A DNA stretch of 64,000 nt from Candidatus Latescibacterota bacterium (GTDB lineage: Bacteria > Latescibacterota > UBA2968). Position 1 is the stretch's first letter. Every line of letters starts with the position of its first letter. Below are positions 1-39,530 of the stretch, one piece after another. The position numbers and the translations under genes were made by a program. The notes under the pieces are model-generated. The model was not told the origin of the DNA, searched no databases, and worked only from the letters and a program-made list of their open reading frames with translations. The DNA lies in NCBI GenBank assembly GCA_965116885.1, contig OZ220741.1:3616001-3680000 (forward strand), given 5' to 3'.

Positions 1-529
1 TGATCGCTACAGCAGTGTTATGTGTATGATGTATATGCACATTTTCAATAATATTATGGTGTGATCCCGATCCCAATAAATATAAACCGATACGAAAACC
101 ATGCGTGTTCCAATACCCCTTGTCCAGAGACACTTTCTTCCCGGTTATTTCTATGCGGGAAATGTTCCAGAACGAGCCACTTAGTTTGATTGCTACCAAA
201 TCCTCTTCCTTTTTTTGACCAACTGTGGAAATTACAGCATATCGACCCTGGCCCGTGCTGTCTTTTGATGTAAGGGTGATTCTATTTTTAGCGGACCCAT
301 TTGCATGTAGCTTAAAACTCTTATCGATTTCATACACTTTGCCGCCCTGAAGCACAATCGTATCACCAGGCTTGACGGTATCCAATGCATCGTAAACATC
401 CTTGCTTGTAGCGCATTGATAAATATCGCTGGCGTAAAGCACATTGATATTGGCAATCAACAGGGAAAAGGAAATAATCAAAGGAGGCAAGAGTCGTTTC
501 GGGGCTAAACTGTTAATGACGTTTTTCAT
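1..529 (-). CDS. Secreted right-handed parallel beta-helix protein (pectate-lyase-like), 5' part; runs off the window edge
   Basis: Manually translated and absent from the ORF track: MKNVINSLAPKRLLPPLIISFSLLIANINVLYA (signal-like), then ALDTVKPGDTIVLQGG...HNIIENVHIHHT. The ATG overlaps the upstream TGA (ATGA). Confidence 0.7.
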   Translation of the reverse strand, partial: MKNVINSLAPKRLLPPLIISFSLLIANINVLYASDIYQCATSKDVYDALDTVKPGDTIVLQGGKVYEIDKSFKLHANGSAKNRITLTSKDSTGQGRYAVISTVGQKKEEDLVAIKLSGSFWNISRIEITGKKVSLDKGYWNTHGFRIGLYLLGSGSHHNIIENVHIHHTHNTAVAI

Positions 530-1626
530 ACATCCCTCACCATATCGTTCTCAGCCGACAGCCGTGCGACCTCCCCGCGCAGTCGGGCATTCTCTGTTAC
601 GATCTTGCCAGCGCGAACGTCTGCCTCCCTGAACTTTGCCATGAAAACTGCTCCGTTTGGCGTGCGATTGTAATCGTAAATGATGTAGATTGTTCCATCG
701 TCTGCCTGCACGCCATCGGGATAGGTGACCTTATCCCGTTCATCCAGCATGAGTCCGCCCTGCCACGTCTGGCCTTCATCGTCGGATACAAACGCCACCA
801 GTTTCTCGCGTCTCGTTTTTTCGGTCATGGATCCATGTTTGACCAATAACAATGCGCCAGGTTTCAAACGACGCACAAAAAATCGGGTGGTAGGATGTGG
901 TATTTTAAGACGTTCAACGGGCGTCCAGGTCTTTCCAAGATCGTGAGAAACTGTCTGGCCGATGCCACGGACTCGCACCAGCATCCAGAGTGAGCCATCC
1001 TTTCGCTCAACAATCATCGGTTCATCAGGCCCCCGCAATTCCGCGTTGACAATATTGGCAGTACCACGAAGCTCGAAGGTCTTGCCCTGATCGCGCGAGG
1101 CATAGACCTTGATGCTGTTGTCAGTCTTCCATACAGACGAGGTAAAGAGCCAATCGCCATTCGATAGTACCGTTGGTTTGTTCAACATGATGCCATTACC
1201 CAATCGACGCGGTTTCGACCATGTTGGGTTCTCAGCATCTGGATTGCTGGTGACAATAGTCCATATGCCGTAACGGCCATCTTGTTGACCAAAACTCTGT
1301 CCCCAGAAAACCCACAGCCGATCCTGGGGATCGGTCCAGATGGAAGCGGACATAGCCCGAACGTCCCTGCAGGGCAGTACCATGATTTTTGGATCTGACC
1401 AGGTGTGCCCATCGTCATCACTACGAATCAAGACCTGGTAGTTTCGAGGGCTTTCGACATCCCGCCCGTAAACTACCCACAACCGTCCCTTTGCGGTGCG
1501 TTCGATGCCTGGCACGCCCTGTCGCGTGGTCGGCGGCACATGCTGTTTCCACGGATTGACAATGACCGTCGCCGGTTCGAGTGCAATATCGGCATCACGC
1601 TGTTTCTCTATTTCTGAATCTGTCAT
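526..1626 (-). CDS. Sialidase/BNR (Asp-box) repeat protein
   Basis: Asp-boxes SDDDGHTW, SRDQGKTF, SHDLGKTW, SDDEGQTW; C-terminal YPD motif; no signal peptide, possibly 5'-truncated. Confidence 0.85.
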   Translation of the reverse strand: MTDSEIEKQRDADIALEPATVIVNPWKQHVPPTTRQGVPGIERTAKGRLWVVYGRDVESPRNYQVLIRSDDDGHTWSDPKIMVLPCRDVRAMSASIWTDPQDRLWVFWGQSFGQQDGRYGIWTIVTSNPDAENPTWSKPRRLGNGIMLNKPTVLSNGDWLFTSSVWKTDNSIKVYASRDQGKTFELRGTANIVNAELRGPDEPMIVERKDGSLWMLVRVRGIGQTVSHDLGKTWTPVERLKIPHPTTRFFVRRLKPGALLLVKHGSMTEKTRREKLVAFVSDDEGQTWQGGLMLDERDKVTYPDGVQADDGTIYIIYDYNRTPNGAVFMAKFREADVRAGKIVTENARLRGEVARLSAENDMVRDV

Positions 1627-1639
1627 GTTGTTTTCCTCA

Positions 1640-1892
1640 ATCTGGACACCTGAGATACAAACTCACGGTAAAGTCCTTCAATGTCCTCAACGCCTACCCA
1701 AACCATACCATGTGCCTCGCCGACTGGATTTGCACTGAGATATATCGTCCAATCATCTCAACTCACGGATGCAAACGAACCGTCGTGCGTCCAATCCACC
1801 CTGAAACCCAAAGCGCTCTGATAATATTCCAGGCTGCTGTCAAGGTCTGAGCAACTGAGAATCGGGATTATGACCTCTACCATCTTTTGCAT
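1640..1892 (-). pseudogene. VOC/glyoxalase-bleomycin resistance family pseudogene
   Basis: MQKMVEVIIPILSCSDLDSSLEYYQSALGFRVDW...SVS*DDWTIYL...VWVGVEDIEGLYREF; in-frame TGA at 1758-1760 and C-terminus missing. The lower coordinate is approximate. Confidence 0.75.
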
Positions 1893-1979
1893 GAGAACCT
1901 TTTCTTTTAAATTTTTTTACAAGATTCCTGTCCCAGCTAGCGGGTAAGGCACAAAAATCCTTCTTCACTCAGTGTTCTG

Positions 1980-2579
1980 TCAACTCAAGATCCCTCTGGA
2001 GACCAGATGGGATTCGAGTGTCTCTACAGTTGTATAGTGATGGGTTTTCAGCCCAACGGAAATGGCAGTTTCAATATTTGGCAGCCTGTCGTCGATGAAC
2101 AGGGATTCCTCTGCAGCAACATGCATGGTTCGCAGCACATATGTGAACGCCCGTGGATCGCTCTTGGTGAATCCAGTCTCATAGGAATAAAACTGCCGCT
2201 TAAAGACCTGCAAAAAAGGGTGATTTTGTCTGACGAAATCACCCCATTCTCTTCCATGATCTGAAAGGATGACTACATCCATCTTCTCTGCCAGCGATGT
2301 AACGAGTGCGATTGCGCGATTGTCGGATTGAAGAAGGTTTCGCCTTATCGTTTCTCTCAGCCCTTCTACAGTGATCGGCCAGCATTTCTCAGAGATTATC
2401 TCGCTGAGATACTCGTCCTCTGTTATACGCCCTACGAACAAAGTTGTGAGCAGTTTTCCACCAAAGCATGACAAGATTTCATCTTGTGGGATTCCCAGTA
2501 TTGGCTGAAGTTCTACTTCTATTCCGTACAGGCCAGAAACAAGTACCTCAGAGAGATCGGAAATGATGAGCCTTATCAT
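1980..2579 (-). CDS. HAD-family phosphatase
   Basis: Motif I-like DLSEVL, SD, KSDP and FIDD motifs. Confidence 0.85.
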   Translation of the reverse strand: MIRLIISDLSEVLVSGLYGIEVELQPILGIPQDEILSCFGGKLLTTLFVGRITEDEYLSEIISEKCWPITVEGLRETIRRNLLQSDNRAIALVTSLAEKMDVVILSDHGREWGDFVRQNHPFLQVFKRQFYSYETGFTKSDPRAFTYVLRTMHVAAEESLFIDDRLPNIETAISVGLKTHHYTTVETLESHLVSRGILS

Positions 2580-2716
2580 CGTCTATGATTCTTTCGTCAA
2601 ATAAGTCTTGTGGTTTCAAAGCCGAATGGCAGGTAATGTCTTCGACATGCCCGAATTGGGATGGTTGGGCGTCTTTCAATTAATACGGCTGCTATTGCCG
2701 ACGCAGGTGTGACAAT

Positions 2717-2789
2717 TTTACCACTCATCCAGATTGCGATCAAAAAAACTCATAATAGCCCTGGAATCCGGTCTATCCATATAAGCCAT
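2717..2789. repeat. Repeat A (3' end of Ham1-like gene); copy at 10352-10424
   Basis: 71/73 identical by manual alignment. Confidence 0.95.
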
Positions 2790-4410: not shown

Positions 4411-5433
4411 ATGCAAACATCTGAACAGACGAAGACCAATCTGAGGCGTTACGATACCCTCACCCGAATAGGCCAGGCTCGGCGTCTGCGAGAACTCGCG
4501 AAGTCCGCACTGCGTCAATTCGACATTCGCGTCCATCGCCTCGAACTCATCAAGCACCTGGTCAACACGACATTCAGACTCCGTTCAGATGAAGGAGAAT
4601 TTCTGGTTCGCATTCACCGAGAAAAAAACCACACCGTTCGCCTGGTCGAATCAGAACTGGCGTGGCTCCTGGCGCTATCCAAAGAAGCCGATGTTACAGT
4701 CCAGACACCCTATATCGCCCCAGACAGCAGAGTCGTTATTTTGGCGGAAGCCACCGGTGTGCCCCAAGCTTACCCCGTCACCGTGCTTTCATGGATCAAA
4801 GGAAGGATCGTGCCTCAGGCGCGTCGGACAACCGGGCATTACGAGAGCCTCGGTCGCCTTGTTGCCACACTACACAAACACGCGATGCAGTGGGATCCAC
4901 CTGACGATTTCGAACGCCCCGTCTATGATGCTATTCATCAACTGGGAAAGTTTTCAGTTCGACCCTTGCCTGAGTTAGGGCCTCGATACCTGCCCGCGCA
5001 CGTCTTGAGAGACATGGAAGCCGTCTATGAACGACGTCGAGAAGCCGAAAGGGTGTTGGGTACTGGTTGCGAGCATTTTGGCCTTATTCACTTTGACCTC
5101 AGCTTCAGCAACATCCTGTTCTCTGGCAGGGAAGCACTACCAATTGATTTCGATGCGTGTGGCTTCGGTTTTTATGCCTACGATCTCGGTGTTGCTCTGA
5201 CAGGTCCTTTTGCCTACGAGAACTTTATGGCCCGATGTGAGGCTGTCTTCCGAGGCTATCGCCAGGTCCTGCCTCTCAGGCGCGAATGGATTGAGTACCT
5301 CCCGACCTTCATGGCCTCTCGCACGGCTTCCTATATCTTACATGTCGCGGCCGATCCGAAGGCTGTAGAGTCACAGTGGCGCTCCCTTCTGCGTCCACTT
5401 CTTAAGGCCTCTCTTGATCAGTTTCCCTCCTGA
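4411..5433 (+). CDS. APH/homoserine kinase II-like phosphotransferase
   Basis: LIHFDLSFSNIL and IDFDACG motifs; the only plus-strand gene of the array. Confidence 0.85.
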   Translation: MQTSEQTKTNLRRYDTLTRIGQARRLRELAKSALRQFDIRVHRLELIKHLVNTTFRLRSDEGEFLVRIHREKNHTVRLVESELAWLLALSKEADVTVQTPYIAPDSRVVILAEATGVPQAYPVTVLSWIKGRIVPQARRTTGHYESLGRLVATLHKHAMQWDPPDDFERPVYDAIHQLGKFSVRPLPELGPRYLPAHVLRDMEAVYERRREAERVLGTGCEHFGLIHFDLSFSNILFSGREALPIDFDACGFGFYAYDLGVALTGPFAYENFMARCEAVFRGYRQVLPLRREWIEYLPTFMASRTASYILHVAADPKAVESQWRSLLRPLLKASLDQFPS

Positions 5434-12997: not shown

Positions 12998-13032
12998 GCC
13001 TAACCTCGGGTTTAACGAACCGTTAAGGTAAT
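12998..13032 (-). other. attI-like/recombination-site-like motif, copy 2
   Basis: Ends in GTTAGGC on the minus strand; 13001-13032 is 27/32 identical to 39134-39165. Confidence 0.45.
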
Positions 13033-14820: not shown

Positions 14821-14850
14821 TCACTATGTACCTGAAAATATCGGGATAGC

Positions 14851-14906
14851 ACTTAACGTGTTAGTGCCCCCGAACCGCACAGCAGTTGGGGGGCACTGTG
14901 TTAGCA
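14851..14906 (-). other. attC-like site
   Basis: ACTTAAC...GTTAGCA ends; internal inverted repeat AGTGCCCCCGAAC/GTTGGGGGGCACT; downstream of higA. Confidence 0.6.
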
Positions 14907-14929
14907 GACGTTGTCCTTCAAGGAACGAG

Positions 14930-15238
14930 TTACCCATCTCTATCCAGGTGCGGTCGCACCTCTCGCTCCAGGCGGTCCGATAGCTCGTCCTCTGCTACAT
15001 CCAGGGCATAGTCCATCTGAATGCCCATCCAGAATTTGGGTGACATGTTGAAGTAGCGAGCGAGTCTCAGGGCCGTATCAGCAGTAATGCCTCGTTTTCC
15101 CAACACAATCTCGTTTATACGTCGGGGCGCCACCCCGATGGAAAGCGCGAGGTGATTTTGACTCAGGTTCATCGGCTTGAGGAACTCTTCCAGCAACACT
15201 TCCCCGGGATGAATAGGAGCCAATTTCTGAGCACACAT
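14930..15238 (-). CDS. higA: HigA antitoxin
   Basis: [37 protein letters not shown]. Confidence 0.95.
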
Positions 15239-15250
15239 AGGTCTATCTCC

Positions 15251-15532
15251 TTAGTGATAATCTACAATCTCAACGTTATAGGCATCCCCATTTTGCCAGG
15301 TAAAACAGATTCGCCATTGGTCGTTGATTCGAATGCTGTACTGGCCGATCCGATTGCCACGAAGTTTCTCGAGGCGATTAGCTGGTGGCATCCGAAGATC
15401 AGCCAGTGTCGTTGAACGATTGATCATGCGAAGCTTGCGAAGGGCGGTCTGTTGAATATCGCTGGGTAGCTTTCTGGATCGGATGCGTTGGAATATCCGT
15501 CGGGTTTCTCGATCTTTGAAGGATCGTATCAT
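15251..15532 (-). CDS. higB: HigB toxin (RelE superfamily)
   Basis: MIRSFKD...PPANRLEKL.G...YSIRINDQWRICF...EIVDYH. Confidence 0.95.
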   Translation of the reverse strand: MIRSFKDRETRRIFQRIRSRKLPSDIQQTALRKLRMINRSTTLADLRMPPANRLEKLRGNRIGQYSIRINDQWRICFTWQNGDAYNVEIVDYH

Positions 15533-15540
15533 ACATACAC

Positions 15541-15577
15541 AATATATAACGTTATGCATTAAACGACAAGCGTTATA
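15541..15577 (-). promoter_or_regulatory. higBA promoter with palindromic operator
   Basis: TTGTCG-17 nt-TATATT on the minus strand; TAACGTTA palindrome in the spacer and a TATAACG/CGTTATA inverted repeat. Confidence 0.7.
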
Positions 15578-15693
15578 CTGGATGGAAATGCAACCTATGG
15601 CGAAATTTGCTATAGAGCGGTTCTTGCGCGCTTTCAGTTTTTGCCGCTTGCGGTTAACCTCCTCGAAATTTGCGATGGTATTGGGACCTGTCC

Positions 15694-16584
15694 TCACCGC
15701 ACCTGCCCCATAGGCCATTCCGAGGTCGGCCTACCTTCCCAGGTTGATCGCCGAAAGAATCGCCCGCCTGGGGGACGACTAAACCAGCTACTAATTGCGA
15801 TTCCCCAAAAGTGCTCAAAGGATCTGTCTTTTAGATTCGCGTCACAGTATGCGTAGTGCGACAAGACCTCGTCGAGAAATGACTCTCCGTATATCCAGAA
15901 CCCATAGAAATCCTTAGCGGGATCCGTGATTTCGATGTCCCCCCAGTCTATGATCCCAGTAAGTCTTCCGGTCAAGGGGTCATGATAGATGTGTTTGTAC
16001 CAGAGGTCGTTATGAGCCAGCACAGGTTCGTATGAATGATCGATGCTTTCACTTCTTTCGATCCATGCTTCGAAAACATCGCGGACCTCACATTGAAGCT
16101 CGTCTGTCCGTTCAGCGAATAACTCCTTCCACATCCTGCGACGCCTAACCGATGCGTCACCTTCTTCTACGCCGAGGCTTCGTGCCTTCGCGACCGGGTA
16201 GCTGTGGAGTTCGCAGATGAAAATACCCAGCCTCTGAGCGGCCTCGCTGCGGTTCGCCTTGGAAAGTCTCCAAAACCGCCACGGCGAAAGTCGAGTCCCC
16301 GAAATTGTGTGGTATCCCGCAAAATCTGACGCCTTCGGCACGAATGCATAGTCGGGAATGGGAATGGCCTTCAGCCTGCTTCTAAGGGCATCCAGGACGA
16401 TCCGCTCCCTCGTCAGATTCGTATCCTCATCATTCTCGAACCGGAAAGCGATGCCATTGTCCAACAGAATCATTACATGATCGGGATCGGCAATAGTCTG
16501 AACTCTTCGGTAATTTGTCCACATGAGATCTGGAAAGGCATCTCTGATTCTCTCCAGGTAGTAGCTGGAAGCCAATGGGGGCAT
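15694..16584 (-). CDS. APH-family phosphotransferase (APH(2'')-like)
   Basis: AHNDLWYKHI, GIIDWGD, DPAKDF; start uncertain (frame open to 16686). Confidence 0.8.
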   Translation of the reverse strand: MPPLASSYYLERIRDAFPDLMWTNYRRVQTIADPDHVMILLDNGIAFRFENDEDTNLTRERIVLDALRSRLKAIPIPDYAFVPKASDFAGYHTISGTRLSPWRFWRLSKANRSEAAQRLGIFICELHSYPVAKARSLGVEEGDASVRRRRMWKELFAERTDELQCEVRDVFEAWIERSESIDHSYEPVLAHNDLWYKHIYHDPLTGRLTGIIDWGDIEITDPAKDFYGFWIYGESFLDEVLSHYAYCDANLKDRSFEHFWGIAISSWFSRPPGGRFFRRSTWEGRPTSEWPMGQVR

Positions 16585-18408: not shown

Positions 18409-18467
18409 AATAAATCAGACTCGTCTATGCCCTGCTGTTAGATGAAGTGCGATCTATCGCTTCCTTA

Positions 18468-19781
18468 TCAGGCATTAAAATAACTGAGTCGATCGCCTTC
18501 TGCTTCCCAGAGTTCTTCAAACATTTTTCGGATGTCGGGTAAAGATACGACGGATGCCGTAAGTGGGTCCAATGCACAAGCATGGAATGCCGCTTCTTTA
18601 TCTTTTTCCATTGCAGCTTTGACGGAGAGTTCTTGTACGGCGATGTTGGTCATGTTTAATGCGGCGCACTGAGGCGGGAGTTCACCAACGTAACAGGGAT
18701 GAATGCCTTCTCTATCGACCATGCAGGGTACTTCAACACAGCATTCGTCGGGAAGATTGGTGATAGATCCGTTGTTCATGACGTTGCCGTTGAAGACAAA
18801 TGGGACACCTGTGATTTTTGCTTCTATGATTGAAGAAGCGTATTCGTGGGATGCTTGTAGTTTTGGGACTTCGGCTTCGGTATCGTCATCTGTGATGCCT
18901 GTGTCTTTCATCCAGGACCGTTTGCGGCTTTCGGGCAATTCCATGAAGACGGGATCGCGTTCTGGCAGGTTGTAGATGTCCCGCAATTCCCGAGTGCGCT
19001 GGAAGTAGGGGAGGTATTCTGAATTGTGTCGGGTGCTTTCAGTGACAAAATAGCCAAATTGCTTCATTAACTCGACCCGCACCAGGTCGTCTTTGAAACT
19101 GGGATGGGTGTCAACGGCTTTGAAGATGCGAGGGTAGAGGTCTTCGCCGTCTTTGTTGAATTTTAGAATCCAGGCCTGGTGGTTAATCCCCGCAACGAGG
19201 TAACTCACATCTTCGTAGGGAACGTCAATGCCATTTGCCAGTTTTTTTGTCGTGCCCTGTACGCTGTGGCAGAGGCCGACGTTTTGGATGGATGAACCGA
19301 TAGAATGCATCCAGGTGAGCATGGCCATGGGGTTGGTATAATTTAACATGAGTGCATCGGGGCAGTGTTTTTCCATGCTTTTGCAAAATGATAGGTGCTC
19401 GTGTGCGGTGCGAAGATAACGGAACACACCTCCTACGCCTACTGTGTCGGCGACAGTTTGGTTAATGCCGTACTTCTTGGGGATGTTGATTTCAGATGCG
19501 TAAGGTTCGCCCCAGTAGGCTGCGCCTCCAATGGATACGGCAGTGACGACAAAATCTGCGCCGGGCAATAATTCTTCGCGATCCGTGCTGGCGATGCATT
19601 TGCCAGGGAGTCCATGGCCGTCAATGGCGCGGTTCACGTAATCGTGTACCTGAGTCAATCGCTCTTCGTTGATATCGCAGAGTGCGATTGTGGAATCGTT
19701 TAATAATTCACGAGATAAAATATCGATGGACAGTCGGCTTCCGAATCCACTGCCAGCACCAATGATTACAATTTTTGTCAT
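18468..19781 (-). CDS. melA: Glycoside hydrolase family 4 (alpha-galactosidase type)
   Basis: IIGAGS, NYTNPM, GLCHSV, GINHQAW, VEVPC. Confidence 0.85.
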   Translation of the reverse strand: MTKIVIIGAGSGFGSRLSIDILSRELLNDSTIALCDINEERLTQVHDYVNRAIDGHGLPGKCIASTDREELLPGADFVVTAVSIGGAAYWGEPYASEINIPKKYGINQTVADTVGVGGVFRYLRTAHEHLSFCKSMEKHCPDALMLNYTNPMAMLTWMHSIGSSIQNVGLCHSVQGTTKKLANGIDVPYEDVSYLVAGINHQAWILKFNKDGEDLYPRIFKAVDTHPSFKDDLVRVELMKQFGYFVTESTRHNSEYLPYFQRTRELRDIYNLPERDPVFMELPESRKRSWMKDTGITDDDTEAEVPKLQASHEYASSIIEAKITGVPFVFNGNVMNNGSITNLPDECCVEVPCMVDREGIHPCYVGELPPQCAALNMTNIAVQELSVKAAMEKDKEAAFHACALDPLTASVVSLPDIRKMFEELWEAEGDRLSYFNA

Positions 19782-19826
19782 TAAAACCTCCAGTATTAAA
19801 GGGTAATGAAATCAGCGAGTGAGGAA

Positions 19827-20687: not shown

Positions 20688-20754
20688 TCCCTCCTTTTTG
20701 GGTCTGCTTCTATGGGAGATAACTTCATTTGAGTTGCACAACTCAAAGCATCTT

Positions 20755-22179
20755 CTATCTCTGCAAACATGACGGATCTACTTCTACAGAATTTGCTGTG
20801 TGTTTGTCCAGTTGATCAGACAATTGGTGGACAACATCTGCATATTCTGGATCTCGTGCTACATTTGTGAATTCTTCTGGATCAGCGTACATATCTGCGA
20901 GGAAGATGTCTTCATCTTCAGGTTTTGGTTTTTCGCCATTGAGCAACACATTTTTATCAAGGCGATACTGACTCGTGCGTATGCAGCTTCGCCGTGGCCA
21001 ACCGCGATTGCCATACCAGTCGCCACGGCCACCATTGGGTGCCATCTTGCTGAATGGCTGGCCATATCCGATTGTAGAGTAGATACAGTCGGGCGGTGGA
21101 TCGGTGAAAAGATCGCGGCCTTTGAATTGTGAAGGTGTCTCGATGTCGGTAAAAGAAAAGAGTGTTCGTGCAATGTCCAGACTGTCGCAGATGTCATCCC
21201 GCACTTGCTCTGCAGGTATGGTGCCTGGCCAGGAGATTAGAAGTGGCACGCGATGCACTGTGGGCGTGTAAGTCAGTTTTTCGAAGGCGCCGGTCTCGCC
21301 AAGTGGATTGCCGTGGTCCGCACCAAATACGATGAGCGTTTGTTCCTGTCGCCCCGTTTTCTCAAGAAAATCTAAGACCCGTCCGACTTGAGCGTCGATC
21401 CAGGCGACCTGTGCGTAGTAGTGAAGGCGTCCTGCACGGAGTTTTTCGGGATCCATTCTGGCCACACCAAAAACTTCGGCAACGCGTTTTTCAAATGCGG
21501 AGAGGGTGTCAGGCAGCGGATCGGGCAGGCCGGGATCTTGATCGTCGAGCAGCTTTACATATTGTGCTGGCGGTAATACCGGTGTGTGGGGCTGAAGAAG
21601 GGAAACGCGCACGAGATAAGGGGAGGTTGCCGTTTGGAGCCAGTGTAGGGCATTTTCAACGACTGAGTCGGGAGGATAGGGTTCGCCGTCTGGGAAAACA
21701 CCGCCGTGCATGCCGCCGTAGGGCGAGCGGATCATCTGCACAGCGTCTTCGCCAAGATGTTCCCAGATTTTCATTTCTCCACCCGTTCCGTCGTGGTATT
21801 GGAAGATTTCATGCTCTGGATTGGCACCTGGACGTATTTCGGGGGCAACGTGAATCTTTCCAAAATTGGCCGTTGAATAGCCGTTCTGTGAAAATACGTT
21901 AGGGAAAGTTTGCAGGATGCGGGGCAACCGGAAATTTGACCATGCACCTTCGTTGTTGTACACGCCTGTGTCTTCGGGATAGAGACCCGTTAGCGTGCAA
22001 TATCTGGAGGCAACGCAAACAGGCGCATTGCAAAAGTTATTTGTGAATCGCACACCGCTGCTCGCCAAACGGTCGAGATTTGGCGTGCGCAACTGCAATC
22101 TGGGATGCCCATAACAGGCCAGCGCATCGGTGCGCAGTTCGTCACAGTAAATCCAGATAATATCCGGTTTTTCAGGCAT
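20755..22179 (-). CDS. Sulfatase
   Basis: CDELR, formylglycine motif CVASR, GKIH, DHG. Confidence 0.9.
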   Translation of the reverse strand: MPEKPDIIWIYCDELRTDALACYGHPRLQLRTPNLDRLASSGVRFTNNFCNAPVCVASRYCTLTGLYPEDTGVYNNEGAWSNFRLPRILQTFPNVFSQNGYSTANFGKIHVAPEIRPGANPEHEIFQYHDGTGGEMKIWEHLGEDAVQMIRSPYGGMHGGVFPDGEPYPPDSVVENALHWLQTATSPYLVRVSLLQPHTPVLPPAQYVKLLDDQDPGLPDPLPDTLSAFEKRVAEVFGVARMDPEKLRAGRLHYYAQVAWIDAQVGRVLDFLEKTGRQEQTLIVFGADHGNPLGETGAFEKLTYTPTVHRVPLLISWPGTIPAEQVRDDICDSLDIARTLFSFTDIETPSQFKGRDLFTDPPPDCIYSTIGYGQPFSKMAPNGGRGDWYGNRGWPRRSCIRTSQYRLDKNVLLNGEKPKPEDEDIFLADMYADPEEFTNVARDPEYADVVHQLSDQLDKHTANSVEVDPSCLQR

Positions 22180-22199
22180 AAAAAGTTCGGCCTTTGTTT

Positions 22200-23477
22200 T
22201 TAGATGTCTTTTTTGGGGACAACTGCGCCGTGTAGCACGAGTAGATCGTGTAAATCAGAAAGCGGAACGTCACCGGGGGTTGTTTCCAAACGCACAGATA
22301 CTGCTGCTGCAGCACCCGCTGCCTGTCCCATAGCCATTGAAGATGCCTGTACTCGCAAAGCAGAATTTGCAAGCCGGTCACTGCTCACACTGCGTCCAGC
22401 GACGAGTAAATTATGACTGTTTTTAGGGATTAGTGCGCGTAGTGGAACTGTTGCAACTGTGCCTTCAGACAGAGGTTGGGGCTTTACACCGTCTTTGTCA
22501 TGGAGGTCAATTGGATAAAAAGAGTACGATACAGCGTCCTCAAAATGTCGGCCACTGGTATAATCATCGTGGGTTATCTGCACCTCTCCAACAATGCGAT
22601 AGGTTTCGCGCACCGCGGTTTCTGCCTGCGCTTTTAAAACGCGGGCATTTTCGCATCCAGGCAGTGAACGTACAAACCGCAAAATCCGCAACAGAGATTG
22701 TCGCCCTGCAATGTTGGTTTTGGTATGCCTGTCAGAGGTCGATGCATCAGCGCCAAATACATGCTGGGCATTTTCTCCGCCTTTTCCAAGGTAGCCGATG
22801 AACCGTGCGCGCGGATTGCTTACATCGCCGTGTTGTAATCGGCCATCTTTCACGGCTGCGATAAACTGTCTTTGTATGACATCTTCGTCCAGCGTATCAA
22901 CATCATAACCACCCAGTTTAAAAATCAATGTGCCCGGTTGTGTTTCTTCTTCGCGCAAACGAGGAAAACCGATCTGGCCCACAATATTTGCTCCGCCCGT
23001 GCAGTCAATTAACTGTTTGGTCAGGATGGTGCGCCGCAGGTTTTTTCCGACGGTCTCGATTTTCCAACCTCTGTCTGTTTCTACAACTTGCGTCGGTATT
23101 TCATAAAAGTGCAATTGCACACCTGCTTGAGTACAGGCTTCTTCTGCAAGTGCCGCATATACAGGGCCGTTGATGCGTATCTGGTGCATCCAATGGCGCT
23201 CAGGAGAGAAGACTGAAAAATCCGGCAGTTGGCCACTGTCAAGTGCTACGGCTTTTACAACCAGTTCCCATCCAATGCCCGCGACAATCTGCTTTCCCCA
23301 GGCATGAAAAAGCCCGGGGAAGGAAACGCCACCTGTTGTGGTGACACCACCGAGTTGACTGCCAGATTCAACCAGAGCCGTGCGAAGTCCCGCGCGTCCC
23401 CCTTGTATGGCAGCAATCGTGCCCGCTGTGCCTCCGCCAATTACGAGTACATCTACATCTTCTTTTATATGCTCCAT
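22200..23477 (-). CDS. FAD-dependent oxidoreductase
   Basis: GGGTAG, IDCTG, RETYRI, LRVQ. Confidence 0.88.
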   Translation of the reverse strand: MEHIKEDVDVLVIGGGTAGTIAAIQGGRAGLRTALVESGSQLGGVTTTGGVSFPGLFHAWGKQIVAGIGWELVVKAVALDSGQLPDFSVFSPERHWMHQIRINGPVYAALAEEACTQAGVQLHFYEIPTQVVETDRGWKIETVGKNLRRTILTKQLIDCTGGANIVGQIGFPRLREEETQPGTLIFKLGGYDVDTLDEDVIQRQFIAAVKDGRLQHGDVSNPRARFIGYLGKGGENAQHVFGADASTSDRHTKTNIAGRQSLLRILRFVRSLPGCENARVLKAQAETAVRETYRIVGEVQITHDDYTSGRHFEDAVSYSFYPIDLHDKDGVKPQPLSEGTVATVPLRALIPKNSHNLLVAGRSVSSDRLANSALRVQASSMAMGQAAGAAAAVSVRLETTPGDVPLSDLHDLLVLHGAVVPKKDI

Positions 23478-23582
23478 ATTTTTTGCTTTCTTTGCTTCAT
23501 TCCTTTTCGAGTAAAAAACGAACCTTTAGTTCGGAAAATATGTGGGATGCTTGATGGATTGGCAATCTCTTTATGTTATCGC

Positions 23583-27294: not shown

Positions 27295-27312
27295 CTCGCC
27301 TATTCCTATGTC

Positions 27313-27355
27313 ACATAACGTTTCATTACTCCCGAACCACGAAGCGGTTGGGGGA
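27313..27355 (-). other. attC-like half site (R' side)
   Basis: ACATAACGTTTCATTACTCCCGAACCACGAAGCGGTTGGG is co-linear with the 14851 and 35633 sites. Confidence 0.55.
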
Positions 27356-27714
27356 CGGCGAGCATCGGATTGGCTGATTCTCGCCTTTCAATCTATGCCT
27401 TCGATTGCAGAGATCCATAATTTCCGGCTGATCAGGCAGCGGGCCTGTTTCGTCTCTATATCTGGGATAGCGTGGTTCCATTGGCAACCGTCTTGTTGTG
27501 TGCTGTGCCAGCCTGGGGTGGGGAGCGGACGAACAACACTTGCAGAAATCCCGCCAGATAGGTCGTCTAGCGGGAACCGAAAAAATTTGCCGCGTCTATG
27601 ATCGCCACAGCCTCAGAAGAGATTTTTCAGGTTGGTCGATTTGGTGAAAAAGTGGCACCTACATCAAATTACAATCGGGGCGGGAATAGAGCAGGCGACA
27701 TCAGCATGTTTTTT

Positions 27715-30201
27715 TTATTCATTCCGCAAGGCATCTACAGGATTTGATCGAGCTGCCTTCATTGTCTGGAAACTCACTGTGATCATGGCAATAAGGAAAG
27801 CCAAGATACCACTTAACATAAAGAACTCAAATCCAAGATCTACCCGATACGCATAATTCTGAAGCCACTGCCACAGGGCATAGTAGCCAATCGGCCAGGC
27901 CAAGAGATTTGCAAGTGCGACCAACTTTGCAAAATCACTGGATAGCGACATAACAATATTGGATACAGACGCTCCCAATACCTTGCGAATGCCGATTTCT
28001 TTTGTACGGTATTGCGCACTCAATGTGGCCAACCCAAGTAACCCCAAGCAGGCAATCAAAATACCAAGGGTTGAAAAGAAACCAAAAATATAGCTCAGTT
28101 TTCTTTCATTTTTATAGATTCGATCCAAATTCTCATCAAGAAAAGAAAATGTGAATGGACGATTGGGTATATACCTTTCCCAGACTTTTTGTACAAATGC
28201 CAGTGTTTGAGATAAATCTTCAGATTTGACCTCTAGGTATAGTAGCCTTGCCTCATGAAATTCTGCAACCAATACGAGTCGTCCGATTTTTTCGTCAAGA
28301 GGTTTGTAATGAAAATCTTTGACAACACCGACGACTGTGCCGGAGCGTAGTCCATCTGGGTAGAACGTGCCTCCAACCTTCCAAGCAAATCGTTTCCCTA
28401 TTGGATTTGTCCAACCCAATTGCTCAACCGCTGTTTCATTCAAGATAAACTGCTCGTCTAATTTTTCCCTCAGTCTTTGCGGGTTTGTTGTTTCGGCATA
28501 TGATCGCGTGAAATTCCGGCCTGATACGCATTTAATGCCATAGAAATCTAGAAAATCCTCATCCACGATTATCACATCCATACTGTACGTGGATTTTCCT
28601 TCGGGATGGAATGTCTCTACTGTTGCTCCTTCTCCAACAGGGCCACGGGTGGTTGTTGCTCTGAGAATATTGGGATGCGTCGTGAATGCCTGCTTGATGG
28701 CGTTGTATTGGCTCTTGAAAAGCGTGGGATTGATCATCTGGTTGCTATTCGCTGCCTCAAAAATTGGAACTTCAATAATCTGCTCGCGGTCGAATCCCAA
28801 ATTTTTATTTCGAAGAAATTTCTGTTGACTGTAAACACCCCAAGTGACAACCATCAATAAAATGGCAAGAGCAAATTGTCCTACAACCAAACTCTTGCGA
28901 AGCCGAGTAGAGACGTTTGTAGCGGATTTACCTCTCAACATTGAAACAGGGCGAAATGTCGATAAGACAAATGCCGGATAACTCCCTGCCAGAATACCGA
29001 CGATGAATATAAGACCGAAAAGGCTGAGCAATAACTGGGTTGTGTTGACATTGAGTGTAATAGCGCAATCAAAAAACGAATTGAAAGTTGGCAATGCCAA
29101 TTCTACCAACACCAAAGCCAAGATAAGCGCCATACAAGCAAAAAATATAGATTCGCCCAAAAATTGTGTGATGAGCTGCAATCGGTTTGCACCGACAACC
29201 TTACGAAGCCCGACCTCTCGCCTCCGCCCAATTGCACGAGCAGTTGTTAGGTTTATAAAATTCACACAGGCAATTACTAAAATAAAAATAGCAAGCAAAG
29301 AAAACAAATACACATTTTGAATGTCACCATGAGGTTTACTGGTCTCTGGAGTACCACGATTCTCAATTTTGATGCCATAATCATGATTGGAGTATAGATG
29401 GATGCGGTTTAGGGGCTGCAAATGATATTGAATGTTATTTGCAACTGCTTCGCCCATGTATTTCGGAATCAGATCTGAAAGTTTGCCTTCAAGTTGATTC
29501 GCATCATAACCTTCTTTAAGCAAAATATAGCTTTCTACAGGACGCCCCCCTCTCGGTTTCCAAGCCATCCATTTTTCTTCCCATCGCCCATTTTTAGTCG
29601 CCGATAAAATATCGAACCGAATGGCCGTCTGCTCAGGCATATTTTTTAAGACGCCTGTAACGTGATGCGCATAATCTTTGTCGTCTTCCTCGATCAGAAT
29701 GGTTTTGCCAATCGGATTTTCAGTGCCAAACAGTTTGTGTGCAAGTCTTTGAGTGATTAAAACGGAACCTGGTTCTGAGAGAACCGTTTCGGGATCGCCT
29801 TGAATCAGTGGAAAGTCAAAAACCTGTAGAACATTCTCGTCTGTAAGGCAAAAGGCTTGTTTGTATATTCTCTTATTGTCAGCAATTATTGTTCTTTGCC
29901 AGCGATGGATACGCAAAGCCTCAGAAATTTCAGGATATACATCCTGATTCAAGACTTCTACGAGACCTCCTAATGTGCGCTCACTAAAAGCTGCTTGGTC
30001 AACTGTTTTAGTCTCTCGAATCACCCTGTAAATTTGATCTCGATTCCTTTGGTGCTGATCAAAACCTAATTCATAGTCGATATAGAGGCCTATCAGGATA
30101 CAACAAGCCAAACCAATGGCTAATCCGATAATGTTCAGAGCTGAGTAGAAACGATGGTTTATCAGGTTTCTCAGCATTATTTTGAGATAATTTTTCAGCA
30201 T
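27715..30201 (-). CDS. ABC transporter permease (MacB/FtsX duplicated type)
   Basis: MLKNYLK, IACVNFINL, EVGLRKVVGA, EIGIRKVLGA, NPVDALRNE. Alternative start at 30252; no ATPase gene nearby. Confidence 0.92.
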   Translation of the reverse strand: MLKNYLKIMLRNLINHRFYSALNIIGLAIGLACCILIGLYIDYELGFDQHQRNRDQIYRVIRETKTVDQAAFSERTLGGLVEVLNQDVYPEISEALRIHRWQRTIIADNKRIYKQAFCLTDENVLQVFDFPLIQGDPETVLSEPGSVLITQRLAHKLFGTENPIGKTILIEEDDKDYAHHVTGVLKNMPEQTAIRFDILSATKNGRWEEKWMAWKPRGGRPVESYILLKEGYDANQLEGKLSDLIPKYMGEAVANNIQYHLQPLNRIHLYSNHDYGIKIENRGTPETSKPHGDIQNVYLFSLLAIFILVIACVNFINLTTARAIGRRREVGLRKVVGANRLQLITQFLGESIFFACMALILALVLVELALPTFNSFFDCAITLNVNTTQLLLSLFGLIFIVGILAGSYPAFVLSTFRPVSMLRGKSATNVSTRLRKSLVVGQFALAILLMVVTWGVYSQQKFLRNKNLGFDREQIIEVPIFEAANSNQMINPTLFKSQYNAIKQAFTTHPNILRATTTRGPVGEGATVETFHPEGKSTYSMDVIIVDEDFLDFYGIKCVSGRNFTRSYAETTNPQRLREKLDEQFILNETAVEQLGWTNPIGKRFAWKVGGTFYPDGLRSGTVVGVVKDFHYKPLDEKIGRLVLVAEFHEARLLYLEVKSEDLSQTLAFVQKVWERYIPNRPFTFSFLDENLDRIYKNERKLSYIFGFFSTLGILIACLGLLGLATLSAQYRTKEIGIRKVLGASVSNIVMSLSSDFAKLVALANLLAWPIGYYALWQWLQNYAYRVDLGFEFFMLSGILAFLIAMITVSFQTMKAARSNPVDALRNE

Positions 30202-30294
30202 GTGTCTGCCCCCAAAGAAGTGATTTCGGTTATTGGCAATTTCAGTTCTCATGAAATCAACTCCTTCAAATTTGAAGACCAGACGGGCAGTTTC

Positions 30295-30427
30295 CGCTAA
30301 CGGTGGGTGTGCCCGACGTGTCTGCATATGAGAAAAAATATCAAGTCTTTTCACAATCAGCCCACCATTCAGAAGCAGCTATGTTGGGGAGTAGGGTACG
30401 GAAGGGTTCGGGCACACATTGTTACAC
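30295..30427 (-). other. attC-like site (133 bp)
   Basis: CGCTAAC...GTTACAC ends; perfect 10-bp inner inverted repeat GTGTGCCCGA (30307-30316)/TCGGGCACAC (30408-30417). Confidence 0.6.
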
Positions 30428-30730: not shown

Positions 30731-30779
30731 TATCAGGCCAATGGATGCCTTCACCTCGACCACGGCGTGTTGGTTTTCT

Positions 30780-31775: not shown

Positions 31776-31778
31776 GAC

Positions 31779-32798: not shown

Positions 32799-32837
32799 AT
32801 GACCACCGATAGGCAGATGTTCCGGCAGGTCAATCCG

Positions 32838-32862
32838 CGCAGGGGTTGGGCGAAGGCCGAAC
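32838..32862 (-). other. Internal fragment of attC-like family
   Basis: GCAGGGGTTGGGCGAAG matches 35661-35677. Confidence 0.5.
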
Positions 32863-32896
32863 CGCTCTTGAGTCGATCACGTCTCTTGTCGAGCGG

Positions 32897-35565: not shown

Positions 35566-35632
35566 TGGCTTTTTCTCCAGTTTTGCAGTTCTGATCATTG
35601 GCGTGATCCCGATAAGATGTATTTCTCATTAC

Positions 35633-35713
35633 ATATAACGTTTTACGGCTTGCGAACCGAGCAGGGGTTGGGCGAAGACCGAATGGCCGAAGCCGTGTGT
35701 GGACGTGTTAAGC
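35633..35713 (-). other. attC-like site (81 bp), best example
   Basis: R'' GCTTAAC contains the TAA stop of the upstream methyltransferase; R' GTTATAT; inner inverted repeat ACGGCTT/AAGCCGT. Confidence 0.72.
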
Positions 35714-36454
35714 ACCCTGTGGGGGACCGGATAGAGGTTTTCCCAACTTCATGAGTAATAACATCGGCCAACCGAGATCAAAATCCTCCGGAAACTCAGT
35801 CCAGTACTCCTTCGCCCTCGGCGACTTCTCAAGCAGGCATTCGTCAGCAAGATGCTCCTCAATGCGATCAATCTGAAGTTGGGCCTTCAAGGCCGCATTG
35901 ACATAGTCCGCGATCTGGTGGTGATAGCCCTCAACGTTAACCTTTTGGCCTGTCTTCATATCAGTGAAGCGAGCCTGTAGGCGACGGAGACGCATCGCTG
36001 GGTGGAGTTCTGAGATGAGAATGAAACCTCCTGGCCGACAGATCCTCGCCATTTCTCCGATTACTGGATCCAAGTCAGAAATGTGCTCCAGGACGAGGCA
36101 GCATAGGACGCGATCAAAGGTGTCATTGTTGAATGGGAGGCACGCTGTCAGATCATGGGTAACGAATCGCACATCGTGGTCTTTCGTCTTCTCAATAGCT
36201 TGCGCCATCATTTCTGGAGCGAAGTCAATTGCGGTCACTCTGGCACCTGCTTCTGACAGATAGAGGGTATGACGTCCCGTACCGCAGCCGATATCAGCGA
36301 CGCTGAGTTCTTGGACATCCCCCAACAGGGATCGCAATAGCGGCTCTTCCAAAATGATCAAGAAATTGTCCTGCGTATCGTACGTTTCAGACCAACGAGC
36401 GTAGCCTTGCCGAACAGGTACGGTTTCAAGATCGGCCCCAGACCCATTACTCAT
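35708..36454 (-). CDS. Class I SAM-dependent methyltransferase
   Basis: ADIGCGTGR, FDRVLC, LEHI. Confidence 0.9.
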   Translation of the reverse strand: MSNGSGADLETVPVRQGYARWSETYDTQDNFLIILEEPLLRSLLGDVQELSVADIGCGTGRHTLYLSEAGARVTAIDFAPEMMAQAIEKTKDHDVRFVTHDLTACLPFNNDTFDRVLCCLVLEHISDLDPVIGEMARICRPGGFILISELHPAMRLRRLQARFTDMKTGQKVNVEGYHHQIADYVNAALKAQLQIDRIEEHLADECLLEKSPRAKEYWTEFPEDFDLGWPMLLLMKLGKPLSGPPQGA

Positions 36455-36495
36455 GTTGTATGTCTCCAGGATAATGCCGGTGGTTCTGCCCAAAG

Positions 36496-37095
36496 TTAAT
36501 TCTCAAATAAGATAGCCCCAACAGCATCGAGTCGATATTGGTTGCCATCGTATGCAATCGTCGTAACAGAGCATTCACGCATGACTTCACCACTGTATGG
36601 GTCATTGCAGAATTTCGGACTGATGCGACTCAGTTCTTCAGACGAAAAAACGTTGAGAAGGAAGTCTGCTAAGACACCACCATGGGTCACCCCGATCACA
36701 GTATCTTTGGATGACTGACGATAGCAATCGGAAACAAATGCCTCAATACGTCTGCCAGCCGCAATGCTTGAATCGCCAACACTGGGCCGGTAATCTCGTT
36801 CTGTGTTACAACGCTCCCACTGAGCCATGAATTCATCGAAAGATTGGCCTTTGATGTCACCCCAATTCATTCGTTCACGTAGCCGTGAATCTTCAGTAAC
36901 GTCAAGTTTCAAAATGGTGGCGATGATCTCTGCTGTTTCTCTTGTTCGTGCCAGTGGACTACTGAAGATTCGCGCGATGCCGTTTGATGCTAACTTCCTG
37001 GCGAGTAGTCTTGCCTCTTCTCGTCCCTTTGATGTCAATGAAGGGTCGCCGATCTTGCGATCTCTCTTACCGTGGCGAATAAAGTAAAAACGCAT
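36496..37095 (-). CDS. Histidine phosphatase family protein
   Basis: RHG, SSPLARTRET, THGG. Confidence 0.9.
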   Translation of the reverse strand: MRFYFIRHGKRDRKIGDPSLTSKGREEARLLARKLASNGIARIFSSPLARTRETAEIIATILKLDVTEDSRLRERMNWGDIKGQSFDEFMAQWERCNTERDYRPSVGDSSIAAGRRIEAFVSDCYRQSSKDTVIGVTHGGVLADFLLNVFSSEELSRISPKFCNDPYSGEVMRECSVTTIAYDGNQYRLDAVGAILFEN

Positions 37096-37121
37096 TAAAT
37101 CTACCTGTCTTTCGATTTTTC

Positions 37122-38057: not shown

Positions 38058-38174
38058 TACCTCAAGATATGTTGATTCTCTTTTCCCATTTCATATATCG
38101 TTCCCGCCGTGCACGAACCCGCTGCAGATATAATATAGAGGAAAACCCTCCCATTCATTGGAGATTGTTAATTT

Positions 38175-38232
38175 GCAGCGGGTTGGGCGAAGGCCCTTAT
38201 GGCCTGAGCCGTGCATGGTCATGTTACACGGC
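38175..38232 (-). other. attC-like site of the TIR cassette (R' side lost)
   Basis: Homologous to 35661-35713; R'' GTGTAAC. Confidence 0.62.
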
Positions 38233-38252
38233 GTGCCACACACTATGAGAGC

Positions 38253-39104
38253 TCAGGTTTCGGCTTCCTCGCGGATAACAGAAATGCTATCACCCATCTG
38301 AATAACATACTTGGGCTCTCCTTTCACTACGGCGACAACAGCCACCTCCCAGGGCATAGTTTTCTCACCCAATCTCATTCTTCTACGCTCTATTCTTCCG
38401 AAAACGGACCAGCCACTCTCTTCCAATTCCCTTATTTGGTCGTTCATTCTCGCGTTCGCTTCGACCCGTCCCCCTGGACCGATGTCATCCCATATGTCCC
38501 CCCAGTCTTGCAGTTCGTCTAGGAATTCGGCAATGAGCGGGACTTCCCCTGAGTCAGGATCGTCATTAAGGAACAGAGTAGCATCACAGAATCCAATTAT
38601 CCCACCAAGTTCTGATCCCATTCTAATTCTCGGCAATGGCTCCTCACTTTCTGCTCGATTTCTCAAATTCTCCACAATGTCAGGGCGAACGACCCCCAAC
38701 ACAGTCGCCACAACTACGCGAAGGCCGTGCTCCCACTTCACGGCGATTTTGTCCGCCAACGGAGGCGAAACAGCTCGAACATCCTTCTCATCGATACCAT
38801 ACCAGACAGGTAATATTACGTTCTGGCCGTCAATTTCCCGTTGGGCTAGTCCGTTCAGCTCTCGTTCCGGATAGTGTTTCCCGAAAAAGCATCTTGACAG
38901 TATGACTACTCCGAATCTGCAGCTTGCAAGACCTTCATCTACCTTAAGACGTAAGCTATCACCAAGTTTCAGTTCGGTTTGATCAAACCATACCGAGACA
39001 CCCAACTTACAAAGAAGCGTCGCCAATGGCCGAGCTACTGCCTCACGATCTTCAGAGGCATATGAAATAAACACATCCCACTGCTTGGGAGTTTGGCTGT
39101 TCAT
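38253..39104 (-). CDS. TIR-domain protein (TIR_2) with uncharacterised C-terminal domain
   Basis: DVFISYASED, VWFD, LGDSL, ERELNG, ILPVW. Confidence 0.9.
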   Translation of the reverse strand: MNSQTPKQWDVFISYASEDREAVARPLATLLCKLGVSVWFDQTELKLGDSLRLKVDEGLASCRFGVVILSRCFFGKHYPERELNGLAQREIDGQNVILPVWYGIDEKDVRAVSPPLADKIAVKWEHGLRVVVATVLGVVRPDIVENLRNRAESEEPLPRIRMGSELGGIIGFCDATLFLNDDPDSGEVPLIAEFLDELQDWGDIWDDIGPGGRVEANARMNDQIRELEESGWSVFGRIERRRMRLGEKTMPWEVAVVAVVKGEPKYVIQMGDSISVIREEAET

Positions 39105-39127
39105 GAGTCACTCAATACAGTTGACAT

Positions 39128-39165
39128 GCCGTGTAACTACGGGATTAACGAACAGTTATGGTAAT
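39128..39165 (-). other. attI-like motif at the head of the array
   Basis: Ends GTTACAC on the minus strand before the TIR gene; no attC hairpin partner; duplicated at 13001-13032. Confidence 0.5.
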
Positions 39166-39176
39166 ACATACCAAAT

Positions 39177-39473
39177 CTATACTTTCTTGCGTGCTTCTAA
39201 CCATCGCTTTAGCGAACGTTGGCTCTCTCCTGAAGGTCGGCCAGCCCATACATTTTCGACACTAATATCCTCATCCAAATCAGGCCAATGGATGCCTTCG
39301 CCTCGACCGATGAGTCGCCAATTACAGCGCTCTTGATGGGTGCCATGCAATAGACGAGGATACCATTCTAAAGGGACGCTTATGCTTCGTCCATCAACTA
39401 AGTCTATCATTAGGGACTCATCATTGATAGAGATACATTCCGTAAGTGCAGGTTTGCAGTTGATATATACCAT
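39177..39473 (-). CDS. DUF2442 family protein
   Basis: DGRSISVPLEWYPRL, GIHWPDLDEDISV. Confidence 0.85.
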   Translation of the reverse strand: MVYINCKPALTECISINDESLMIDLVDGRSISVPLEWYPRLLHGTHQERCNWRLIGRGEGIHWPDLDEDISVENVWAGRPSGESQRSLKRWLEARKKV

Positions 39474-39493
39474 TGTTTTACAGTGATATAGAA

Positions 39494-39530
39494 ACTAAAA
39501 GCCCACGGTCAAAGGACGTGAGCTTTTAGT
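39494..39530. terminator. Intrinsic terminator-like hairpin at the core/array boundary
   Basis: ACTAAAAGCCCACG/CGTGAGCTTTTAGT inverted repeat with A/T tracts. Confidence 0.7.

Follow-up and report, generated by a model that had tools for sequence, protein, structure and literature searches.

Integrase-less clusters of attC sites are common and poorly understood. In the excerpted text of Cury et al. (2016, PMC4889954), such a cluster of attC sites lacking the integron integrase (CALIN) has its sites less than 4 kb apart, and loss of intI figures as one proposed origin. We describe here a co-oriented gene array in the closed 5.56-Mb chromosome of a Candidatus Latescibacterota bacterium (genome G000), located in a stretch of 64,000 nucleotides (G000:C1:3,616,001-3,680,000) hereafter called the window, to which positions refer unless marked as genome positions. 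Positions 1-39,530 of the window probably represent an integrase-less, eroding remnant of a chromosomal integron, in other words a CALIN, which, behind a gene encoding a UVR-motif protein, heads an island of over 100 kb that is both co-oriented and hypervariable.

The resemblance to CALINs, as that excerpt presents them, lies in co-oriented attC sites separated by under 4 kb, the absence of the integrase IntI nearby or in the genome, and cassettes unrelated to resistance. Unlike those clusters, the sites of the window are mostly eroded, reach a spacing of 12 kb and are embedded in the larger co-oriented island, and some cassette ends are marked by a second, short and unstructured site that we call S. 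Our own profile, covariance model (CM) and manual calls place at least two integrase-less, same-strand attC sites within 4 kb of each other; on the same calls, the gaps between successive sites D, B, F, E and C (listed below) are 2.4, 2.8, 2.4 and 2.9 kb. The array itself is probably a further example of this known type of object.

With sedentary chromosomal integrons, going by the portion of PMC5371416 available, the locus shares a fixed site across species, a homogeneous attC family and a toxin-antitoxin cassette; it differs from them in having no integrase, in the interleaving of cassettes with resident catabolic genes, and in very large cassettes (MacB, ~3 kb). The array occupies the same location across the genus and no recognisable intI stands at its head in G000; an integrase with the IntI additional domain, as expected of a complete integron, was found neither in G000 nor in 20 congeners. 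The same portion of that study (Loot et al. 2017, PMC5371416) reports that placing the attC bottom strand on the lagging-strand template makes folding and excision easier, and is associated with small arrays. GC skew puts the origin of replication at about 1.27 Mb and the terminus at about 4.27 Mb, from which the window array would match the lagging-strand-template orientation.

The rAID-1 elements of Bacteroidales, as outlined in an excerpt of Ross et al. (bioRxiv 10.1101/471110), are likened to the present arrays by layout, given the 5' recombinase and co-directional cassettes seen in genomes G005, G009 and G039; unlike rAID-1, the present arrays have classical attC sites as their repeats, and a recombinase whose sequence is IntI-like. 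A 5' XerD-like recombinase heading the cassettes occurs in G005 and G009 and is absent from G000. Complex class 1 integrons with ISCR1 carry genes without attC inside the integron array. The window array likewise contains attC-less genes, and differs in that no IS91/ISCR transposase was found in the window, in G000 or in the arrays of the genus that were examined.

The attC sites of the window

Six sites were recognised in the window, all pointing in gene direction:

38091..38231, minus strand: attC D, with R'' and L boxes intact, a long loop, and GAT for GTT in the R' triplet (CM 42.2 bits, E 1e-7)
35631..35715, minus strand: attC B, with R'' GCTTAAC, R' GTTATAT and an L box degenerate in the family register (CM 81.2 bits, the site being one of the model's own seed sequences)
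32835..32867, minus strand: attC remnant F, central hairpin only (nhmmer E 0.02)
30295..30427, minus strand: attC E, 133 nt, intact, with R'' GTGTAAC, L'' TGTGCCCGA, L' TCGGGCACA and R' GTTAGCG (found by eye and by structural scan)
27311..27377, minus strand: attC C, with a good 3' half (R' GTTATGT), an R'' that reads AAT, and no L'' (CM 51.9 bits)
14849..14908, minus strand: attC A, 60 nt, intact, with R'' TGCTAAC, paired L boxes and R' GTTAAGT (fold -14 kcal/mol; CM 55.2 bits)

These are bona fide attC sites belonging to one co-oriented family. In cassette orientation, its members are built of R'', a short spacer, the L'' arm, a variable part, a conserved hairpin CCCAACCGCTTCGCGGTTCG, the L' arm, a further spacer (GAAAAC, for example) and R', where R'' conforms to (G/T)(C/T)(C/T)TAAC (e.g. 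GCCTAAC, GTCTAAC, GCTTAAC) and R' to GTTRRRY. The predicted bottom-strand folds match those of textbook attC sites, the '' arm carrying bulged bases. Both core boxes are in order in sites A, B and E, while D and C are each altered in one; pairing of L'' with L' is confined to A, D and E, the L arms of E forming a perfect 9-nt match that is paired in the minimum-energy structure. Among others, the HigB/HTH pair and the MacB, TIR, methyltransferase and APH cassettes end in attC sites of classical anatomy, and attC A trails the HTH gene also in the congeners G014, G004 and G020.

A whole-genome nhmmer search with a sequence profile of the family returned five places in the window array (35,713-35,632; 27,361-27,312; 14,907-14,850; 38,230-38,180; 32,867-32,835), one strong match elsewhere and two more with E >0.2; the match to attC C was confined to profile positions 35-84. 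Four window sites were matched by the family-specific CM, a type of search proposed in an earlier, sequence-only reading of this DNA, which had described most junctions as lacking attC and many sites as halves; the sites are indeed sparse (six, mostly damaged), and several are halves. A solitary attC-like site of the same family lies at genome positions 3,717,537-3,717,594 on the minus strand, ~37.5 kb past the right end of the window (nhmmer E 5e-6). Three generic scans were set aside. A strict scanner for paired R''/R' motifs under a constrained fold gave one spurious match and overlooked attC A, in whose R'' two positions are mismatched; a looser version was unspecific, with 646 matches genome-wide, mostly palindromes in coding sequence; and a scan for L-box complementarity gave 6 matches on the array strand against 2.8 expected, the credible ones being attC A and attC E only.

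The L boxes of the family covary. The CM, seeded with nine attC sites, recovered 55 sites from 14 sources, and 54 distinct sites from 14 sources entered a covariation test, in which the structure combined the R box with an L box of 11 pairs and the inner hairpin. Pairing was found in 87.9% of cells, compared with 24-37% when partners were slid, and double-sided changes in 160 cells, compared with 23-38 in the slid controls; none of 500 shuffles reached the observed pairing score. The TAAC/GTTA pairs of the R box are retained in 98.1% of cells. In the L box, 81.6% of cells pair and nine of the 11 pairs covary. The L boxes were specified by hand for this test, and the CM used for alignment held only the R box and inner hairpin, so that the L-box signal was not built in by the model. 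RNAalifold, run on MAFFT and CM alignments, found just 4 pairs. Across the arrays of G000 and eight congeners, profile matches are in array orientation without exception (34/34) and all fall in the first 46.4 kb. The family is present in 34 of the 53 genomes of the order, with maxima of 43, 41 and 33 sites per genome in G029, G036 and G026.

Search for an integrase

No canonical IntI was found in the G000 genome, in answer to the whole-genome intI search that the earlier reading had called for: the best match to TIGR02249 scores 88.2 bits against a cut-off of 265, and the two top-scoring genes resemble ordinary XerC/D-type recombinases. All 20 congeners fall below that cut-off. Of the 168 genomes of the phylum, 17 pass it, the only ones within the order being G023 and G080. 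The 59 kb around the canonical IntI gene of G080 contain no attC of the same family near the gene and one weak match 18.7 kb off; the flanks of this gene may hold another attC family invisible to our profile.

A fixed chromosomal site and the short site S

The head of the array and the two copies of S in G000 are organised as follows:

39563..40312, minus strand: UVR-motif gene (PF02151), the conserved anchor ahead of the array
39474..39562, minus strand: intergenic hairpin (~39,500-39,530) with a T-rich tail, terminator-like as read in the sequence; zone of the synteny break
1..39530, minus strand: the whole array as given, whose co-orientation and module shuffling persist left of the window
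39177..39473, minus strand: DUF2442 cassette (PF10387), first gene of the array
39134..39164, minus strand: site S1 (TTACCATAACTGTTCGTTAATCCCGTAGTTA), homology breaking right past its GTTA (motif scan)
13001..13031, minus strand: site S2, behind an aldo-keto reductase gene (5 mismatches to the consensus)

With the UVR-motif protein as query, 18 same-genus loci were retrieved (81-100% protein identity). The core flank is collinear with the window in all 18, at 77-95% identity, and in each of them synteny stops between 39,134 and 39,561; arrays follow the UVR gene in all eight congener genomes compared. In the comparison anchored on this gene, as suggested by the sequence-only reading, synteny is lost past the anchor in 18/18 loci and modules are shuffled in 8/8 genomes. 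The claim that the array begins after a terminator downstream of a core gene is upheld as regards the start site (18/18 loci); as regards the terminator, the hairpin at ~39.5 kb was not called by a terminator scan.

S is a 31-nt motif, TTACCGTAAC(A/T)GTTCGTTAATCCCGTAGTTA, usually preceded by TAGATTTGGTATG. It occurs in 13 sequences as 20 forward copies and no reverse copy, and only twice in the whole G000 genome (39,164-39,134 and 13,031-13,001). Sequence to the left of S is conserved and the right side diverges from the base after GTTA, many copies having an ATG 9-10 nt on. At least five different genes end in S: the array-head recombinase gene discussed below, the DUF2442 gene (G000, G020 and G006), the aldo-keto reductase gene (also in G009, G017 and G004) and two others. 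Its predicted fold is weak. At a guess from its sequence, S may be a collapsed attC site that retains both core sites; G000 offers no intI by which to place an attI site or a Pc promoter, and S is no more than a candidate functional analogue.

Erosion of the array

Deletions have removed or halved most attC sites and fused cassettes. The features on which this section draws are:

30732..30761, minus strand: a DUF2442 gene fragment of 30 nt (97% identical to 39,279-39,308), fused on behind an APH cassette; a deletion scar
14930..15718, minus strand: cassette with a HigB-like toxin and an HTH antitoxin (PF05015, PF01381), owner of attC A
27703..30261, minus strand: MacB/FtsX permease module (PF12704, PF02687), a large cassette between attC E and attC C
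18462..23581, minus strand: conserved block of FAD oxidoreductase, sulfatase, PhyH dioxygenase and GH4 genes (Pfam)

Behind the APH gene at 30,780-31,775, the counterpart in G006 has an intact attC where G000 has the 30-nt DUF2442 piece. In four congeners the methyltransferase cassette retains the R'' and spacer of attC B followed by unrelated DNA, homology stopping at 35,698. One module boundary, at 14,859, adjoins the R' of attC A; another is seen in G017, whose downstream module begins at 27,309, directly past the R' of attC C.

The 3' ends of the four genes of the 18462..23581 block were found in 8, 7, 8 and 8 of the eight congener arrays, and neither attC nor S trails any of them in the nine arrays. 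Being common to 7-8 of the 8 congeners, these attC-less genes are old residents, and would be resident genes of the larger island rather than new captures. Of the large genes that the sequence-only reading saw mixed into the array, those at 18.5-23.6 kb recur in 7-8 of 8 congeners and are not recent arrivals, and MacB is bracketed by attC E and attC C. That reading's proposal of a decayed integron array is sustained by the co-oriented bona fide attC sites, the site-removing deletions, the lack of IntI and the hypervariability at a fixed site. Its addition that the array still acquires genes by another route was not shown, the metabolic genes being old, MacB attC-bracketed, and G000 free of any IS91/ISCR transposase.

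Turnover among congeners and in sponge metagenomes

Gene-size modules continue to be gained, lost and reshuffled between congeners and in contigs from sponge metagenomes, with breakpoints at attC and S. When the 100 kb downstream of the UVR gene were compared in eight closed congeners (nine arrays including that of G000), gene-size pieces were reordered, missing or duplicated in all eight and across the whole 100 kb. The order of the backbone is largely kept, the movers being APH genes, a methyltransferase/phosphatase pair and a trpD-like gene. The MacB module (30,261-27,703) is 98.9-99.5% identical in G017, G015, G009 and G006, compared with 91-95% for the core flank; a GNAT module (98.4-99.2%) and a BNR module (98.1-98.6%) are similarly close between species. 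That modules are closer than the core flank is suggestive of recent exchange between species.

Twenty public runs, most of them labelled sponge metagenome, contain part of 30,000-39,600, two of them with 93-96% of the sampled words. Contigs of four runs (X1, X5, X15 and X16) were placed on 20,001-40,000, the shorter sides of the joints being just 20-47 letters. Two joints use the last base of S1, 30,731|39,134 in X16 and 31,781|39,134 in X1, and loose contig ends lie at 39,134 in X1 and X5. A joint at 39,166|39,489 drops the DUF2442 gene (X15, X5), and another, 32,871|35,667 in X16, runs from beside remnant F into attC B, skipping 2,795 bases. An alternative order, in which 35,580 adjoins 30,261, is present in all four runs. 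The public contigs agree with the genome comparison, without amounting to independent proof that the array is active in this population.

The minus-strand run extends ~75 kb left of the window and is not peculiar to these 39 kb. Genome positions 3,540,700-3,616,000 hold a co-oriented cluster that runs against the replication direction and contains at least 14 sulfatase genes, together with PhyH dioxygenases, polysaccharide-lyase-like and BNR proteins, an RND pump and an MFS transporter. Its modules are likewise reordered between congeners, and no common motif was seen at module boundaries in this sulfatase part. At ~3,589,232-3,593,056 (minus strand) a 1,274-aa open reading frame (ORF) of G000 spans two modules that are separate in six congeners; at the junction G000 has a deletion of ~65 bp, and TAG where others read CAG.

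Interpretation and alternatives

The reading that we consider likely, an eroding integron remnant, would run as follows. Site-specific recombination, using attC sites as well as the short site S, would once have inserted the cassettes; the recombinase gene would later have been lost from the G000 lineage; and since that loss the array would have changed mainly via deletion, duplication and homologous exchange with the arrays of co-resident congeners, the sulfated-glycan genes at 18.5-23.6 kb being resident island genes embedded in it. Several observations weigh against this account. An attC or S lies within 300 nt 3' of only 6 of 39 genes in G000, or 10 of 39 if any of the nine arrays is counted, so that most junctions give no direct sign of a cassette origin. 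Sites A and E alone among those of the window look fully functional. Both the nhmmer profile and the CM are family-specific and missed attC E, which makes all site counts lower bounds. Shuffling runs far past the last attC into the sulfatase island, with some junctions inside genes, and general plasticity of the island may therefore explain much of the variation. Finally, the public contigs come from mixed sponge communities and may represent other or sister species rather than variants of this population.

A first alternative, possible although we would not favour it, is a working, non-canonical integron-like system, in which an IntI-like recombinase without the additional domain joins S, in the role of attI and with crossover at GTTA, to folded attC sites; G000 would have lost the gene and would still trade cassettes with congeners that keep it. 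The idea derives from G005 and G009, where a tyrosine recombinase gene (376 and 276 aa, respectively), co-directional with the cassettes, stands directly after the UVR gene, and S lies directly past its stop codon. Compared with that of G005, the G009 gene (L015:1384-2214) lacks ~100 internal residues, deleted in frame between two YVY motifs. The array-head recombinase scores 214 bits against TIGR02249 and 215.7 against NF040815, slightly below both cut-offs. Its best solved relative is VchIntIA (2a3v; 146.7 bits), with two aligned stretches between which lie 25 residues as against 67 in IntI4, and the same gap, ~41 residues long, appears when it is aligned with ten canonical Latescibacterota IntI proteins. 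In a tree, the recombinase and IntI are split from the XerC/D-type recombinases of G000 with 100/100 support.

Similar layouts recur in other genomes. The succession of gene, S and co-oriented attC is found in G039 and, within a 3.5-kb stretch, in G025 (another family), where S directly follows the gene and a single weak co-oriented attC match is present. G026 has one such recombinase gene within an array of at least 22 attC sites and neither a canonical IntI nor an IS91 transposase, and in G021, G029 and G032 such a gene or a fragment of it lies upstream of co-oriented attC, by coordinates alone. Altogether, recombinases without the additional domain stand beside same-family attC arrays in four other genera; the carriers amount to about five genera, which means that the cases are not independent. 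Order-wide, the attC family found in 34 of 53 genomes contrasts with canonical IntI in 2, and homology breaks exactly past the GTTA of S, which is a joint or loose end in three of the public runs.

Set against this, the recombinase family is huge, with at least 6,250 relatives at E<=1e-30 in many phyla, and the gene is absent from G000 and from 18 of 20 congeners. In G036 a relative is the accessory gene of a 2.5-kb IS91-type element, made up of the tyrosine recombinase and a Y2 transposase (PF04986, PF14319) and present in six copies of 94-99.6% identity (L156:3836-6351 and five more loci). S folds weakly, and recombination by such a system is a proposal drawn from sequence comparison. The additional domain is reported to be needed for IntI activity in the title of Messier and Roy (2001, listed among the references of PMC4792948). 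XerCD is noted to act on the folded CTX phage site without a domain of this kind (PMC4792948, in the excerpt available). Titles and abstract openings of the papers listed for Latescibacter integrons, or for attC recombinases without the additional domain, mention nothing of such a system. The broader proposition, that this order of Latescibacterota runs a non-canonical integron class of which the window would be an orphaned array still trading cassettes with congeners, we hold to be equally tentative.

A less probable alternative is that the region is an ordinary flexible island, changed by homologous recombination, tandem duplication and deletion among co-oriented paralogues, with the attC sites as inert fossils. 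Shuffling and indels at least 60 kb past the last attC, among the 14 or more sulfatase genes and other paralogues, would be expected of such an island, as would the damage to most attC sites of the window; one reordering is a circular permutation of three modules, explicable by duplication and loss, and some junctions are intragenic. Against this explanation, breakpoints in the attC-bearing part fall at the R' of attC A and attC C and at the GTTA of S, co-orientation is total (34/34 attC matches, 20/20 S copies), and the between-species similarity of several modules exceeds that of the core flank by 4-8 points.

Import of the attC-less genes on the pattern of complex class 1 integrons, through a rolling-circle element of IS91/ISCR type, is very improbable: five of the six copies of the G036 element do lie directly upstream of co-oriented attC sites (one copy being trailed by an ankyrin-repeat gene), yet the Y2 transposase (PF04986) has no match in G000, only one fragment in 21 genomes of the genus, far from the array of its genome, and none in G039, G025, G026 and G029, and no IS91-type element ends were recognised in the window.

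Gene content and composition

From the ORFs of 80 aa or longer in 1-39,530, we accepted as genes 39 of the minus strand and one of the plus strand, in keeping with the near-uniform orientation noted in the sequence-only reading. A Pfam family was assigned to 35 of the 43 ORFs scanned. The genes comprise two GNAT and two NUDIX genes, HigB with HTH, TIR, DUF2442 and methyltransferases; six APH-type kinases are present, one being a fragment; and further families include HAD, histidine phosphatase, a trpD-like gene, a CBM9 protein, and BNR and PD40 proteins. Others encode GH4, PhyH, a sulfatase, two FAD oxidoreductases and an 879-aa MacB/FtsX permease. This diversity agrees with the earlier description of the genes as functionally unrelated, and a GC content per kb of 0.417-0.592 within the array (genome mean 0.511) with that of abrupt shifts in composition. 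The reported lack of tyrosine recombinase and transposase genes in the window likewise holds, no recombinase or transposase family being found among the Pfam-scanned ORFs. An Rfam search of the window gave zero matches and no tRNA genes were found in it. Two further genes of the array deserve a line:

38253..39104, minus strand: TIR-domain cassette, a candidate defence gene (PF13676; PADLOC PDC-S66 E 1e-48, ThsB-like 2e-26)
4411..5433, plus strand: the sole plus-strand gene, an APH-type kinase (ORF list and Pfam)

The TIR cassette is absent from the eight congener arrays compared. PADLOC matches in the window are limited to the TIR protein, two NUDIX proteins and a weak HTH match. Right of 42.7 kb the window carries housekeeping genes (ribosomal proteins S9 and S2, EF-Ts, RRF, chorismate synthase, SmpB, GidA). 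At 45,596-46,420 (plus strand) lies a gene built of five tandem repeats of 129-144 nt encoding LDL-receptor class B (YWTD) repeats, a domain type mostly of animals.

Within the array, a 353-nt gap at 1,627-1,979 contains a short, stop-interrupted ORF and may be a broken cassette gene. Four pairs of direct repeats (7,608-7,697 / 11,269-11,358; 8,659-8,730 / 12,328-12,399; 2,717-2,792 / 10,352-10,427; 32,878-32,959 / 34,869-34,950), of 72-90 nt and 88-96% identity, lie at gene ends and junctions and resemble traces of duplicated cassette ends. The recurrent motif CCCACCCCGCTAAATCGCGCACAAAA was ruled out as a general junction site, there being 0-2 occurrences per array, mostly in one conserved upstream segment, which belongs to the duplicated stretch 7,608-7,697 / 11,269-11,358.

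Implications

Beyond the addition of one more probable CALIN, interest attaches to the S site, to the surplus, across the order, of attC arrays relative to IntI genes, and to the candidate recombinase. The availability of many closed genomes of one genus lets the decay and turnover of such clusters be followed gene by gene. In this sponge-associated lineage the arrays carry candidate defence genes, namely the TIR protein and the HigBA pair. The pattern bears on the origin and mobility of CALINs, and on whether the additional domain of IntI is indispensable for handling folded attC sites.

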